NCBI GenBank assembly: GCA_017626395.1
Contig: JAGAIU010000015.1
Span: 3,746-67,745, forward strand
Reading direction: 5' to 3'
DNA: 64,000 nucleotides
Source of the DNA: Clostridia bacterium
Lineage (GTDB): Bacteria; Bacillota; Clostridia; TANB77; CAG-465
Below are positions 3,963 to 42,553 of this stretch, in pieces. Both the position numbers and the translations under genes were made by a program. Within the stretch, counting starts at the first letter, position 1, and each line of letters opens with the position of its first letter. Under the pieces are notes generated by a model that made no database searches, was not told the origin of the DNA, and was given only the letters and a program-made list of their open reading frames with translations.

Positions 3963-4120
3963 TGAAAAAATTTCCTTATATATAGGTCTATAAATCGCAA
4001 TTTCCTATATATACTTCTATTATAACATATGATATAATAAAAAGCAAAGCAAAATATATTTGCTTTGCTAAACATTAGCATAAATCTTGTGAAACAAGAG
4101 GGACATATAATAAAGCTGAG

Positions 4121-4681: not shown

Positions 4682-6316
4682 ATGAAAGATAGAATAATTA
4701 GTATTATAAAATGCATTATACTACTTGTTGTAGTTGCAGCATTATTTATAACTACCAAAAATGGTATTGTAGGACAAGGTGTTACAAATAATAGCTCTAA
4801 ATTAGTAATATTTGGAGATAATATAGATAAAAAATATAGTCCTTTTGTTGAAGATGGAAAAGTATATATATCAGTAGATACAATTGAATGCTTTATTGAT
4901 GAAGATATTTTTTATGATGTACATAAACAAAAGATAATAATAACAAATGAAGAAGCAGTATATAAATTTAAAATTAATGATAATAAACCAACTAAAAATT
5001 TAGAATCTTACACAACAGAAACAACTGCTAAAGTTGTTAATGATGAACCATATATTGAAATGTCATTAATTAAAGATATATATAATATCAAAAGTGAATA
5101 TGATGAAGAAACAAATACAATTTCAATAGACAAGAAAGATTTTAGTGACTTACATTTAAATTATAACGATGTAAAAGTATATAGTGCTTTAAATACAAAT
5201 TCACAAGTACTTGAAACTTTAAATAAAAATAATACTGTAATTGTATATGTAGATAGTTTAAAACATAACAGATGGTATAAAATAAAAAGTGATAGTGGCA
5301 AAGTAGGATATATAGAAAAATCAGCTGTTACTTTAAGAAATGAAGTAGATAATGAAGAAGAAAATAACACTAATATTGCTCAAGAAAAACTAATAATGTT
5401 CTGGCAATATGGAAGTAACACAAATACACTTGGAGATAAAATTGAAGGTGTAAATGTAGTAATGCCAACATGGTTTTCTATTTCGGATTCACAAGGTGCA
5501 GTAGAGATAAATTACAACAGAGAATATTACCAAAAAGCTAAAGCAAATGGTTATGAACTTTGGCCAATTATAACTAATGGATTAGATAATCTAGAAATGG
5601 ATAAAAAAGCTGTAACTTCTGAAATTATGAATAATGAAGAAAGCAGAGAAAATCTAATTAGAAATATAGCTGGTCTTATTGAAGAATATAGATTAGATGG
5701 TATAAATATAGACTTTGAAGGAATGAAAGAAGAAGATAAATATTTATATACACAATTTTTAAGAGAATTATATCCAGTAGTAAAATCTAAAGGTGCTAAA
5801 TTATCTGTAGATATATATTTCACAAACTACATAGACAGAAAAGGTGTAGGTAAAGCTTGTGACTATGTAATGTTAATGGGATATGATCAAAGAGGTAACT
5901 GGTCAGACGAAGCGGGTTCGATAGCTGAAGTTTCTTGGGTAGAGAATAATATAAATTCTTTAATTGAAGATTCTAAAATAGATCCTTCAAAAATAATTCT
6001 TGGTGTACCTTTCTATACAAGACTATGGAATGTTAAATCTGATGGAACTTTTACAACAAATGTATATAGTATGAAAAATTCACAAGATTTTGTATCTAAA
6101 TATGGTTTAACACCAGTTCTAGATGAAATATCTGGTCAAAACTATGTAGAAATGACATCAGGAAACACAACATATAAATTATGGATTGAAGATGCAACTT
6201 CAATTTCTAATAGAGCGGATATAGTAACAAAATATAATCTTGCTGGAATAACAGCTTGGCAAAAAGGATTTGAAACAGAAGACATTTGGCAAGTTTTAAA
6301 AGAAAAATTAAAATAA
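4682..6316 (+). CDS. secreted/membrane-anchored glycoside hydrolase family 18 protein (YaaH/SleL-like, possible spore peptidoglycan hydrolase) with an SH3-like domain
   Basis: GH18 motifs DGINIDFEGM (DxxDxDxE region), MLMGYDQ and GVPFYTRLW. N-terminal signal/TM anchor and a central SH3b-like segment. Start set at ATG 4682 after the AGGGG RBS; the ORF track gives 4655. Confidence 0.75.
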   Translation: MKDRIISIIKCIILLVVVAALFITTKNGIVGQGVTNNSSKLVIFGDNIDKKYSPFVEDGKVYISVDTIECFIDEDIFYDVHKQKIIITNEEAVYKFKINDNKPTKNLESYTTETTAKVVNDEPYIEMSLIKDIYNIKSEYDEETNTISIDKKDFSDLHLNYNDVKVYSALNTNSQVLETLNKNNTVIVYVDSLKHNRWYKIKSDSGKVGYIEKSAVTLRNEVDNEEENNTNIAQEKLIMFWQYGSNTNTLGDKIEGVNVVMPTWFSISDSQGAVEINYNREYYQKAKANGYELWPIITNGLDNLEMDKKAVTSEIMNNEESRENLIRNIAGLIEEYRLDGINIDFEGMKEEDKYLYTQFLRELYPVVKSKGAKLSVDIYFTNYIDRKGVGKACDYVMLMGYDQRGNWSDEAGSIAEVSWVENNINSLIEDSKIDPSKIILGVPFYTRLWNVKSDGTFTTNVYSMKNSQDFVSKYGLTPVLDEISGQNYVEMTSGNTTYKLWIEDATSISNRADIVTKYNLAGITAWQKGFETEDIWQVLKEKLK

Positions 6317-40007: not shown

Positions 40008-41831
40008 ATGGAAGAATTAAAAAATCTCAATTCCTTAAAAGATATAATAAATGTAAGATTTGATCTTTTTAAAGATAAAGTCGCTTTTATTGAAAAAGAT
40101 GCGGATCATAAAGAGTTTGAACATATTAAATATAGTCAAATAAAGGAAAAAATTAATGGTTTGGGAACGTATATGCTAAAGGAACTTAACCTAAAAGGTG
40201 AGAAAGTAGCTGTAATAGGTGAAAATTCATACAGATGGTATGTGACATATATGGCTGTTGCATGTGGAGTAGGCATAATTGTACCACTAGATAAAGGGTT
40301 ACCAGAACATGAAATTTTAAATTTATTACAAAGATCAGGGGCTAAAGCGATAGTATATTCATCTAGAAAAAAAGATGAAATTAACTCTCTGAAAAAAGAT
40401 TTATCTAAAGATATGATATATATAGAAATGAACAAGAAAGAGTCAGATGAAGAATCCATTGCTTTTGATAGAATAATTGAAAAAGGCATAAAGATGGTAG
40501 ATTCTGGCGATAGAACATATATTGATGCTCAAATAGATAGAGAAGCTTTTAGTATATTGTTATTTACATCTGGTACATCAGCATCTGCTAAAGGTGTTAT
40601 GCTTAGTCATAAAAATCTATGTTCTAATATATATTCTTGTTCATGTGTAGTACCAACTTTTGGAGATTATACATGTTTATCTCTATTACCTATACATCAT
40701 ACATATGAGTTTACGTTAGATTATTTATTTATGACAGCTGTCGGTGCAACAATAGGTGTATGTCAAGGATTAAAATATATAACTAAAGACTTAAAAGAAA
40801 TAAAGCCAGATTTTATTCTTGCGGTTCCAGCAATTATTGAAAGATTTAACCAAGTAATTGAGAAAGGAATCAAAGAAACTGGAAAAGAAAGTACAATTAA
40901 AACTATAAAAACAATAGCAAATGGCTTTAGTAGATTGGGTCTGGATTTTAGAAGAAAAATATTTGCTAAAATACAAGAGAATTTTGGTGGCAACTTAAAA
41001 TATTTATTCTGTGGAGCGGCTCCACTAGATCCAGAGTTAATTACTAAAATGGAGGGATATGGATTTAAGTTCTTGCAGGGATATGGGCTAACAGAAACAT
41101 CTCCACTTGTCACTGGTACATCTTTAAAGTGTGATGCATCAGGAACAGTTGGAAAAGCTGTTGAAGGTGTAGAAGTTAGAATAGATTTAAGTAAAAATGA
41201 AGATGAGAACAGTAACATTGGTGAAATTATAGTAAAAGGTGACAATGTAATGCTAGGTTACTATGAAGATGAAGAAGCAACTAAAAAAGTTATGAAAAAA
41301 AGTTGGTTCTATACTGGGGACTTAGGCTATTTTGACCTAAGAGGTAACTTAGTTATTACAGGTAGAACAAAAAATGTTATAGTTACAGCTAATGGTAAAA
41401 ATATATATCCAGAGGAACTAGAAAATCTTTTAAATAAAATGCCTCTTATAGCTGAATCTATGGTATATGGTAAAAGAGTATCTAAAACATCTAAAGACGT
41501 AATTGTTGCTGCAAGAGTTACTTTAGATAATGCTGTTTTAGAAGGAGAATTTGGAGAAAATATACCATCAGATGATAAACTGTATAATATGATTTTTGAA
41601 GATATTAAAAAAATTAATAGAATGATGGTATCATATAAAGCTATAAAAGAACTTGAGATAAAAAAAGACGATTTTGAGAAAACTACAACTATGAAAATAA
41701 AAAGATATGCTGAATTAGAAAATTCTAATTACGATAATATGATAACAACTGAATCTGTTAATAAAATAAAAGCTTCACAAAAGAAAGAGAAAAGAAAAGT
41801 AGTTAATGTGGAAGCAAAAAAGAAAAAATAA
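40008..41831 (+). CDS. AMP-dependent synthetase/ligase (long-chain fatty acid--CoA ligase-like)
   Basis: AMP-binding motif LFTSGTSASAKGVMLSHKN, then YGLTETS and a ...GD...KIKRY...-like C-terminus. Confidence 0.8.
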   Translation: MEELKNLNSLKDIINVRFDLFKDKVAFIEKDADHKEFEHIKYSQIKEKINGLGTYMLKELNLKGEKVAVIGENSYRWYVTYMAVACGVGIIVPLDKGLPEHEILNLLQRSGAKAIVYSSRKKDEINSLKKDLSKDMIYIEMNKKESDEESIAFDRIIEKGIKMVDSGDRTYIDAQIDREAFSILLFTSGTSASAKGVMLSHKNLCSNIYSCSCVVPTFGDYTCLSLLPIHHTYEFTLDYLFMTAVGATIGVCQGLKYITKDLKEIKPDFILAVPAIIERFNQVIEKGIKETGKESTIKTIKTIANGFSRLGLDFRRKIFAKIQENFGGNLKYLFCGAAPLDPELITKMEGYGFKFLQGYGLTETSPLVTGTSLKCDASGTVGKAVEGVEVRIDLSKNEDENSNIGEIIVKGDNVMLGYYEDEEATKKVMKKSWFYTGDLGYFDLRGNLVITGRTKNVIVTANGKNIYPEELENLLNKMPLIAESMVYGKRVSKTSKDVIVAARVTLDNAVLEGEFGENIPSDDKLYNMIFEDIKKINRMMVSYKAIKELEIKKDDFEKTTTMKIKRYAELENSNYDNMITTESVNKIKASQKKEKRKVVNVEAKKKK

Positions 41832-41839
41832 TAAATAAA

Positions 41840-41873
41840 AAGCTCTGAATATTTAAGATTCAGAGCTTTTTTT
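41840..41873 (+). terminator. intrinsic terminator
   Basis: AGCTCTGAAT-ATTTAAGA-TTCAGAGCT followed by TTTTTT. Confidence 0.75.
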
Positions 41874-41925
41874 AAATAAGAGTCGCTTTAAAATATAATT
41901 ATTAAAAAATACAAATATAACTACT

Positions 41926-41953
41926 TGACAGATATTAGTTAATTCATATAATA
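41926..41953 (+). promoter_or_regulatory. consensus sigma-A promoter for the small-peptide mRNA
   Basis: TTGACA-16 nt-TATAAT. Confidence 0.5.
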
Positions 41954-42145
41954 GAATTATCTCGACATCTTGAATTTATCGAGACACTTATATTATAAAT
42001 TCTAAACACTTTAAAGTCAATGAAATTTACTTAAAAACTGGCACTTTTCATCGCAAAAAACAACATAAAAATAGATACAAAATTATTTTGAATTCAAAGA
42101 TTAAAATAGTATAGTTATTTCACTCCGAAAGGAGGTGAAATCTTA

Positions 42146-42214
42146 ATGGAGACACTAGTAATTGTGTTATTTCTTATGATAGTTCTTGTAGAAGAATTAA
42201 AAAGTATGAAGTAA
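42146..42214 (+). CDS. 22-aa hydrophobic peptide (METLVIVLFLMIVLVEELKSMK), candidate type I toxin-like membrane peptide
   Basis: Strong RBS GGAGGTGA 7 nt upstream. The SD is embedded in the hairpin AUUUCACUCC-GAAA-GGAGGUGAAAU (42117-42141). A ~190-nt 5' UTR and its own terminator. Confidence 0.4.
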   Translation: METLVIVLFLMIVLVEELKSMK

Positions 42215-42346
42215 ATAAAAAAGTAGTTAGAACTGGGATTCTAACTACTTTTTTATAAAATAAATTTAATTATTTTATATACTCCTTAGTGGAAACACTA
42301 ATACTAAGTAACTATATTATAACATTTTAATGCTTTAAAGTCAATT
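42212..42346 (-). ncRNA. candidate antisense/convergent small RNA (about 95 nt) driven by a consensus promoter and ending at the shared terminator
   Basis: Minus strand. TTGACT-17-TATAAT (-10 at 42316-42321). The transcript runs to the 42222-42255 hairpin plus U-tract. It contains no ORF. Confidence 0.35.
42222..42255. terminator. bidirectional intrinsic terminator shared by convergent transcripts
   Basis: AGTAGTTAGAA-CTGGGA-TTCTAACTACT flanked by A9 upstream and T6 downstream. Confidence 0.7.
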
Positions 42347-42477
42347 AAAAGCATTGATAAATCAATGCTTTTTAATCGCAAATAAAGCTATAAAATATAG
42401 TTGTGTATATTTTATGTATGTGTATAAATTATATTCAAAAATATAACAAAAAAACTAGCTAAAAAGCTAGTTTAATT

Positions 42478-42553
42478 TGGTGCCCCTTCGGGGGCTCGAA
42501 CCCCGGACAAACTGCTTAAGAGGCAGCTGCTCTACCGACTGAGCTAAAAGGAC
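42478..42553 (-). tRNA. tRNA-Lys (anticodon CTT), CCA encoded
   Basis: The reverse complement folds as a cloverleaf: UAGCUCAGUCGGUAGAGCA D-arm, anticodon loop CUCUUAA, T-arm GGGGUUCGAGCCCC. The acceptor stem GUCCUUU/AAGGGGC contains two G-U pairs. Confidence 0.7.

Follow-up and report, generated by a model that had tools for sequence, protein, structure and literature searches.

A candidate par-like type I toxin-antitoxin module with a 22-residue hydrophobic peptide next to tRNA-Lys in an uncultured Clostridia lineage of the gut

Introduction

What is encoded between an acyl-CoA synthetase gene and tRNA-Lys in a gut Clostridia bacterium, and, if it is a toxin-antitoxin (TA) module, how would its toxin be kept silent? 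The region in question lies within a 64,000-nucleotide stretch of contig JAGAIU010000015.1 (hereafter the window), in which an earlier reading of the letters alone (the sequence-only reading) had proposed a type I TA-like module, with a short hydrophobic peptide and a convergent antisense RNA arranged as in the Bacillus systems txpA/RatA and bsrG/SR4. Comparing the locus with its relatives in silico, we found a conserved open reading frame (ORF), conserved promoters and terminator, a structured small RNA (sRNA), co-varying pairing between the two RNAs, cognate specificity of tandem copies, and variation in copy number. We consider it probable that the module is a par-like type I TA candidate. 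Its closest architecture appears to be that of par (Fst, RNA I/RNA II) and SprA1/SprA1AS rather than txpA/RatA, because the 3' overlap of the two RNAs consists of the terminator only, while their complementarity lies in 5' direct repeats over the translation initiation region.

Results

Complementarity at the translation initiation region

The element occurs at the matching site in closer relatives, which were reached through homologues of a neighbouring protein that are 88-91% identical. Five distinct units, namely that of the window, those of loci L016 and L017, and the two tandem units of L019 (L019a and L019b), form alignment A1, which is 85% identical over ~400 nucleotides (nt).

Our main new result is a direct repeat at the start codon of the peptide ORF. 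On the + strand, the copy in the initiation region consists of ACTCC (42122-26) followed by TTAATGGAGACACTAGTAA (42143-61), and the downstream copy consists of ACTCC (42281-85) followed by TTAGTGGAAACACTAATAC (42286-42304), which together are the reverse complement of the sRNA 5' end. The two blocks are split by a 16-nt segment, comprising a loop and the Shine-Dalgarno (SD) sequence, in the mRNA copy only; the downstream copy lacks it. Because of this repeat, nt 1-30 of the sRNA can pair with the anti-SD arm, the start codon, and the first five to six codons of the mRNA. Cognate duplexes computed with RNAduplex reach -24 to -28 kcal/mol (z = -2.7 to -4.1), with an identical register in 5/5 units.

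Between loci the two copies of the repeat change together, as illustrated by the pairs GAGACACTAG/GAAACACTAA, GAGTTATTGA/GAATTATTGA, and GAGTCATTAA/GAATCATTAA. Across the five units, 92.5% of intermolecular cells hold standard pairs, and 7 of the 24 pairs have changed on both sides. The covariation score of these pairs was not reached in any of 500 shuffles, and sliding the register left only 35-61% of positions paired. Within the central 13 columns, all nine differing cells (six distinct events) are of the classes mRNA-G/repeat-A or mRNA-T/repeat-C, both G.U-compatible, a restriction that selection on RNA pairing would predict and that homogenisation of DNA repeats would not. The tandem units of L019 are moreover orthogonal in computed duplexes, with cognate energies of -27.9 and -24.4 kcal/mol vs -15.6 and -18.1 kcal/mol for the crossed combinations.

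The peptide and its mRNA

The sequence-only reading had described an SD locked into a near-perfect hairpin, followed by a 22-codon ORF for a hydrophobic peptide with a charged tail, and both descriptions held (coordinates and folding energies in Table 1). The SD hairpin is nearly invariant in the five copies, its sole stem change being a C -> U substitution in L016 that retains a G.U pair. The mRNA predicted to start at the proximal promoter P2 (~140 nt) folds to -41 kcal/mol (z = -5.6), with ACUCC paired either with the SD or with AUGGAG; from the P2 start, what is left is a 4-bp CUCC/GGAG stem with a GAAA loop, or ACUCC with AUGGAG.

The ORF frame is kept in all five units, which encode peptides of 22, 22, 22, 22, and 20 amino acids (aa): METLVIVLFLMIVLVEELKSMK in the window, MELLIIALFLMIVLLEELKSMK in L017, MESLIVALFLMIILIEELKSMK in L019a, METLIVVLFLMIVLIEELKSMK in L019b, and MEMVVIALFLMIILLKELKK in L016, where the start codon is TTG. 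Core substitutions among the five peptides all stay within V, I, L, A, M, T, and S. The Kyte-Doolittle hydropathy of residues 3-15 is 3.3-3.6, and the tail reads EELKSMK or KELKK. The ratio of nonsynonymous to synonymous change (pN/pS) is 0.26-0.57, at a synonymous divergence of 12-24% among full-length copies and 43-46% relative to L016. Variable ORF columns number 9, 3, and 6 at codon positions 1, 2, and 3; the minimum at position 2 is what selection would produce, because the middle T of hydrophobic codons is then expected to be retained. These substitution counts are small, hence we take them as supportive rather than conclusive evidence that the ORF is coding. Among ORFs of 15-50 aa that lie outside long ORFs, a scan of the whole window identified no other that is strongly hydrophobic and has an SD ahead of it. 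The generic marks of type I toxins (<70 aa, a hydrophobic or transmembrane region, and a polar or charged C-terminus; PMC2887945) are all seen in these 20-22 aa peptides.

Two further observations concern the mRNA. A conserved hairpin lies within the ORF (42178-42200, GUUCUU-NUAG-AAGAAU, codons 13-18), nested in a longer stem that extends to the stop codon; it is invariant among copies and could add to mRNA stability or translational control. In unit b of L025 (3566-3571), the anti-SD arm has changed from CACTCC to CAATCA, a change that makes the SD hairpin as well as the short ACUCC:GGAGU contact weaker and could reflect either the decay of one copy or an assembly error.

Shared terminator and candidate antitoxin

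Downstream of the ORF, the bidirectional terminator named by the sequence-only reading was recovered as a perfect inverted repeat that can act on both strands, because its two sides carry an A-run and a T-run, respectively. In L016 it carries a compensatory A-U -> G-C change, and its loops vary by locus. The predicted minus-strand RNA had been described as an ORF-less transcript of ~95 nt, and we likewise detected no SD-preceded ORF in it; its putative cis overlap with the mRNA is ~40-45 nt, is confined to the terminator, and ends at the stop codon of the ORF.

The consensus fold of the sRNA comprises three hairpins: a 5' hairpin of 6 bp with a 12-nt loop, an AU-rich hairpin, and the terminator. 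Two pairs of the 5' hairpin covary, UA/CG and GC/AU/UA. With its own promoter, structured body, terminator, and co-varying complementarity, this RNA has the properties expected of the adjacent base-pairing sRNA gene of a type I system. A YUNR U-turn motif is present in the terminator loop of the window (CUGG in CUGGGA), and absent from those of L016 (CCCCCG) and L017 (CUAUAGGGG); among par-like homologues this motif is not universal (PMC7472228).

Promoters and traces of tandem duplication

Three promoter matches of at least 11/12 were found in the 646-nt region between synthetase and tRNA-Lys, where dinucleotide shuffles gave a mean of 0.075 and 0/1000 reached three. Weak promoter matches numbered 27, vs 16.5 expected. 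Two of the three strong matches are the consensus promoters that the sequence-only reading had placed on the + and - strands, the latter with a TG extension in addition. Absent from that reading were P2, P3, the start-codon direct repeat, and a partial tandem repeat with a 324-nt period.

The ~190-nt 5' untranslated region (UTR) that it had derived from the distal promoter P1 needs revision: P1 is present in the window, but this leader is not a conserved feature, and the conserved promoter of the peptide mRNA is the proximal P2. Every unit has its own P2-type promoter immediately ahead of the SD hairpin, with a predicted start in the window near A42122, within the 5' arm of that hairpin. Its -10 box is TATAAT in the other four copies of alignment A1 and TATAGT in the window, its -35 box reads TTGAAT, TTGAAC, or TTGGAT, and the spacer is variable. 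In L019 unit b, P2 is the sole available + strand promoter. In the sRNA promoter, which was detected at both L019 units, both hexamers are invariant across the five copies and the spacer is variable.

P1 was found in L016, L017, and L024, and was unrecognisable in L019, L020, L023, and L025. Because it persists in L024, which lacks a toxin unit, we assign P1 to a separate conserved module that consists of P1, a palindrome, and the face-to-face promoter P3. The inverted repeat I9 (arms 41947-65 and 41979-97) includes the -10 boxes of both promoters. The hairpin at 41960-84 folds to -9.6 kcal/mol in its minus-strand version (z = -3.9), and its stems differ in sequence yet retain pairing in L016, L019, and L024. 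The predicted starts of P1 and P3 lie ~27 nt apart across the palindrome (41947-41997), and the pair, which persists in L024, may represent transcriptional interference or a 5'-overlapping pair of sRNAs. An RNA from P1 is predicted to begin with the hairpin 41960-84, and one from P2 to begin inside the SD hairpin. A long-leader isoform from P1 is possible in this genome, because no strong terminator lies between P1 and the ORF in the window; the form with a 190-nt leader does not, however, appear to be the conserved design.

P3 is kept in all relatives. It belongs with the sRNA promoter to a single repeat of 324-nt period, and is the homologue of that promoter within a decayed "unit 0". The repeat is visible as D1 (41989-42025 and 42313-42349, 81% identity) and D3 (42045-42070 and 42370-42395, 77% identity), so the window holds one full unit and the edge of another, as left by tandem duplication. 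The unit is probably insulated by a terminator-like hairpin (42347-42372) upstream of the sRNA promoter, and a related hairpin marks the left edge of each L019 unit. We also considered the P3 RNA as a second cognate antitoxin: an 8-nt match to GAGACACU (D6) exists in the window and is lost in L017, and it was rejected as a conserved interaction.

Table 1. Positions of the module's features and of neighbouring elements within the window.
Feature	Position	Strand	Remarks
Distal promoter P1, TTGACA-16-TATAAT	41925-41952	+	12/12 consensus matches
Palindromic hairpin TCTCGA-N13-TCGAGA	41960-41984		Between face-to-face P1 and P3
Promoter P3, TTGACT-17-TATAAT	42020..41992	-	11/12 matches; points toward P1
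Proximal promoter P2 of peptide mRNA, TTGAAT-16-TATAGT	42088-42115	+	9/12 matches
SD-sequestering hairpin AUUUCACUCC-GAAA-GGAGGUGAAAU	42117-42141	+	-10.3 kcal/mol, z = -4.5; 0/200 shuffles fold as well
Second, short mRNA target ACUCC	42122-42126	+	Anti-SD arm
SD GGAGGUGA	42131-42138	+	Inside hairpin 42117-42141
mRNA target, direct-repeat copy 1, UUAAUGGAGACACUAGUAA	42143-42161	+	Start codon and 5 codons
22-codon ORF METLVIVLFLMIVLVEELKSMK	42146-42214	+	Hydrophobic core (residues 3-15) and charged tail; stop 42212-14
Bidirectional intrinsic terminator	42215-42256		Perfect 18-bp inverted repeat I5, arms 42215-42232 and 42239-42256
Candidate antitoxin sRNA, ~95 nt	42309..~42215	-	-27.7 kcal/mol, z = -5.9
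sRNA target-recognition region, direct-repeat copy 2, 5'-GUAUUAGUGUUUCCACUAAGGAGU-3'	42281-42304	-	Pairs with mRNA target
Partial second copy of the unit's left edge	42313-42395	+	324-325 nt period, D1 and D3
sRNA promoter, TTGACT-17-TATAAT with TG extension	42344..42316	-	11/12 matches
Hairpin/terminator AAAAGCATTGAT-AA-ATCAATGCTTTT	42347-42372		I20, 12-nt arms 100%; terminator-like, upstream of sRNA promoter
tRNA-Lys(CTT)	42478-42553	-	3' end toward the candidate module; context only

Copy number at a hypervariable site

The sequence-only reading had suggested looking for paralogous copies of the peptide in related genomes, and the closer relatives carry both single and tandem units. One unit is present in L016, L017, L018, L042, and L043, and two full tandem units in L019 and L025; L024 carries none, and the site is empty in L022, an 84% relative. 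The spacer between the synthetase and the 3' end of tRNA-Lys is hypervariable (L022 4366-4480, L024 2416-2640, L019 4821-5998, L025 2955-4132). Two short-read contigs stop inside the element (L020, which ends at 4111, and L023, at 2333), and in L017 a scaffold N gap (5468-5567) is flanked by duplicated tRNA-proximal sequence; these contig ends and this gap fit assembly breaks from tandem copies. When the unit was used as an nhmmer profile, neither the window nor any of the fetched loci yielded a further copy.

The GTDB species-level relatives, in which the neighbouring protein is 62-83% identical, do not carry the element; their spacer is non-homologous by blastn and holds other small elements or nothing. 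In L005 (6199-6366) and L012 (6018-6191), the matching site is occupied by an ORF of 55-57 aa that weakly resembles Arc/ribbon-helix-helix proteins (Pfam Arc, E = 0.02, which does not pass the cut-off), preceded by an SD-sequestering hairpin of similar style (aatcacttcc-tgga-ggtgatt). We rejected the possibility that the module is a remnant of this Arc/ribbon-helix-helix-like gene, which shows no similarity to the 22-aa peptide beyond the style of the SD hairpin. At the same site, L002 (5876-6040; also L003 and L004) and L007 (5900-6050; also L006 and L008) carry a strong P1-like promoter, ACTTGACA; behind it come ~110-130 nt that lack an ORF and are rich in hairpins, and then a terminator. 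We regard these stretches, which match nothing in Rfam, as candidate sRNA genes.

Genomic setting and database searches

The host DNA has a GC content of ~27%, and the best matches of the flanking acyl-CoA synthetase are from metagenome-assembled genomes of uncultured gut Clostridia, with 75-83% identity to the best species-level relatives and 62% to Clostridium sp. CAG:465. Near tRNA-Lys we found neither an integrase nor a repeat of the tRNA 3' end, and an integrated mobile element was rejected on both counts. A leader peptide or attenuator was likewise rejected, there being no + strand gene downstream of the terminator. Directly upstream of the synthetase, L016-L019 encode a Fic/RhuM-domain protein and a protein of 141-146 aa without Pfam match (~1230-2190).

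Searching the window and eight related loci against Rfam 15 at gathering and permissive thresholds, only the tRNA passed. Matches to ohsC (E ~1-1.6, 41802-41876) fall on the terminator of the neighbouring gene and were dismissed as chance. Among the matches listed for the SD-hairpin pattern, none was viral and one was an unrelated metagenome sequence from the Joint Genome Institute (JGI), in a higher-GC context at a contig end; those listed for the terminator pattern likewise included no viral sequence. The 16 viral matches listed for an 18-mer from the ORF centre were all attributed to chance by nhmmer.

Discussion

From these comparisons we infer that both RNAs are transcribed, and that the peptide is translated, toxic, and repressed by the sRNA. 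In the mechanism we propose, a peptide mRNA of ~140 nt, probably transcribed from the proximal P2, would encode a candidate membrane toxin of 22 aa and would be translationally silent as long as its SD is paired with the anti-SD arm in the 5' hairpin. The convergent sRNA of ~95 nt would terminate at the shared bidirectional terminator, and the complementary terminator loops may provide a first kissing contact, as in par. The sRNA 5' hairpin loop and the sequence that follows it would pair with the start codon, the first five to six codons, and the ACUCC arm, blocking binding of the 30S ribosomal subunit. Decay of the sRNA or a drop in its level would then permit peptide synthesis, leading to membrane damage or depolarisation.

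Several observations weigh against this interpretation. The covariation rests on only five related units from one narrow clade, gene conversion between the DNA direct repeats could mimic part of it, and the duplex z-scores are modest for single sequences. The SD hairpin stem is invariant, so it offers no compensatory change. A hydrophobic stretch of ~13 residues is short for a membrane span, and the peptide lacks the tryptophan and the PXXXG of Fst, such that membership of the Fst/Ldr family is not supported. Finally, the module RNAs match no Rfam family (fstAT, RatA, SR4-like, Sib, and OhsC included), and four variants of the peptide returned no match in Pfam or NCBIfam at E <= 10.

We weighed three alternatives against the par-like candidate. 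The purifying constraint on the ORF and its conserved EELKSMK tail would also suit a small, non-toxic membrane protein under sRNA repression that is harmless when overexpressed, for example a transporter modulator or a micro-protein of sporulation or membrane stress. The lack of homology to known toxin families, a position on the core chromosome between housekeeping genes rather than in a prophage or plasmid, and the absence of anything related among the listed viral matches all point in the same direction. However, presence/absence and tandem copy variation in close relatives is unusual for a needed protein, whereas type I TA loci typically show it (PMC2887945). Silencing the message twice, through an SD hairpin and through an antisense RNA over the start codon, is the hallmark of toxin control (PMC7472228), and there is no operon partner gene. 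We judge a non-toxic role unlikely. The module could also act as txpA/RatA or bsrG/SR4 do, through the 3' overlap only, with RNase III cleavage and mRNA decay and with the 5' complementarity irrelevant. At the terminator the two RNAs are indeed perfectly complementary over ~40-45 nt, and bsrG, too, sequesters its SD (PMC3834814); yet the overlap is confined to a very stable 18-bp terminator hairpin outside the ORF, whereas SR4 and RatA form long, complete duplexes (PMC3834814). Such a mode of action would leave unexplained both the co-varying complementarity at the start codon and why tandem units with nearly identical terminators show cognate specificity, and we consider it very unlikely.

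It is also conceivable, at a probability we would put as slight, that the region consists of repeat DNA in decay whose signals are fortuitous, in which the ORF is untranslated, the minus-strand promoter unused, and the repeat similarity a remnant of duplication homogenised by gene conversion. The region is indeed a partial tandem repeat (D1, D3, D6), the 27% GC content makes promoter- and hairpin-like sequence common, as seen in the excess of weak promoter matches, the 17/22 repeat match is by our estimate insignificant in a single sequence, and L025 unit b carries two changes in the anti-SD arm. Fortuity accounts poorly, however, for the three strong promoter matches, for hexamers that are invariant between variable spacers, and for an ORF frame and hydrophobic codon pattern that survive the synonymous divergence reported above. 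Nor does it account for compensatory changes in the sRNA hairpin that are independent of the repeat, or for repeat differences limited to the pairing-preserving G/A and T/C classes. Taken together, these results favour the par-like type I candidate. The core of the module put forward by the sequence-only reading is supported, since the ORF, both RNA genes, their promoters, and a pairing between the RNAs are conserved and co-vary in relatives; its assignment to the closest known architecture would have to be replaced.

To our knowledge, cultured Bacilli and Clostridioides difficile account for nearly all Gram-positive examples. With this module, the regulatory design of par would reach a lineage of uncultured gut Clostridia and a peptide without detectable relation to Fst, which argues that the toxin family is less widespread, or has been reinvented less often, than the RNA architecture. 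Sites with zero, one, or two copies, together with orthogonal tandem copies, would provide a natural experiment on how cognate specificity evolves through co-variation of start-codon region and antisense RNA. A 22-residue peptide would be a minimal model of a membrane-active toxin and a possible counter-selection tool. Current understanding is not overturned by these results. At somewhat less than even probability in our view, the module represents a new toxin family with the shortest type I toxins seen so far in Gram-positive bacteria, in which the antitoxin grips the anti-SD arm and the start codon while the SD is looped out in a 16-nt bulge, and in which orthogonal pairs arise through tandem duplication at the hypervariable tRNA-Lys site.

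Relation to described type I systems

The par-like loci, as defined in Weaver's review, combine convergent promoters, a bidirectional terminator, the direct repeats DRa/DRb, an SD-sequestering 5' stem-loop, and an upstream helix (PMC7472228). The first four of these features, known from par of Enterococcus faecalis pAD1 (fst RNA I/RNA II) and from chromosomal par-like loci of Firmicutes, are present here: convergent promoters with a shared bidirectional intrinsic terminator, oppositely transcribed direct repeats that set the 5' region of the antitoxin against the initiation region of the toxin (42143-42161 and 42286-42304), and an SD sequestered by a stem-loop at the 5' end of the toxin mRNA. 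Further likenesses are the small size of the peptide, its hydrophobic helix and its charged tail at the C-terminus, and interaction sequences that diverge between paralogues, conferring specificity (PMC7472228). Our module differs in several respects. The peptide has 20-22 aa vs 33 aa in Fst, and none of the five peptides contains W, G, or P, whereas the Fst/Ldr signature comprises W and P/D/S/T-XXX-G(C) (PMC7472228). Here a single repeat is split around the SD hairpin into ACUCC and a start-codon block, whereas DRa and DRb of par cover the SD and the start codon. The YUNR motif is found in the terminator loop of the window and not in that of L016 or L017, and the host belongs to an uncultured low-GC gut lineage of Clostridia.

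In Staphylococcus aureus, SprA1AS is encoded in cis with an overlap at the 3' end only and represses through a non-overlapping 5' domain that acts on the ribosome-binding region (PMC8309996). A 3'-only overlap combined with trans-like translational repression by a 5' domain is also what the present module would use. Its peptide is unrelated in sequence to PepA1, a 30-aa member of the Fst family, and its sRNA would cover not the SD itself but the start codon and the codons that follow.

The resemblance to txpA/RatA and bsrG/SR4 of Bacillus subtilis, on which the sequence-only reading had settled, extends to convergent genes, 3'-end complementarity, a partly sequestered SD, and a hydrophobic toxin. 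As described by Brantl and co-workers, SR4 and RatA form complete 3' duplexes that lead to decay by RNase III, whereas RNA II pairs through its 3' end and 5' direct repeats and blocks translation only (PMC3834814). The Bacillus antitoxins are ~180-220 nt long with a long duplex and their toxins 38-59 aa, whereas the overlap here is the ~42-nt terminator only and the conserved pairing is at the 5' ends, so that par and SprA1 appear closer.

In peptide length and copy-number behaviour, a parallel is ibs/sib of Escherichia coli, which shares a very short hydrophobic toxin, tandem loci in one intergenic region, copy-number variation, and cognate discrimination (PMC8309996, PMC2887945). This system is Gram-negative, Sib is encoded directly opposite ibs and is fully antisense, the shared-terminator and direct-repeat design is missing, and Ibs has no charged tail. 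Type I loci are typically polymorphic for presence and absence and prone to tandem duplication (PMC2887945), and the Gram-positive type I toxins reported, from Bacillus and Clostridioides, have 28-60 aa (PMC6563280). A toxin of 20-22 aa is therefore unusual for Gram-positive bacteria but still plausible, since IbsC has 19 aa and is toxic even when cut to 15 aa (PMC8309996).

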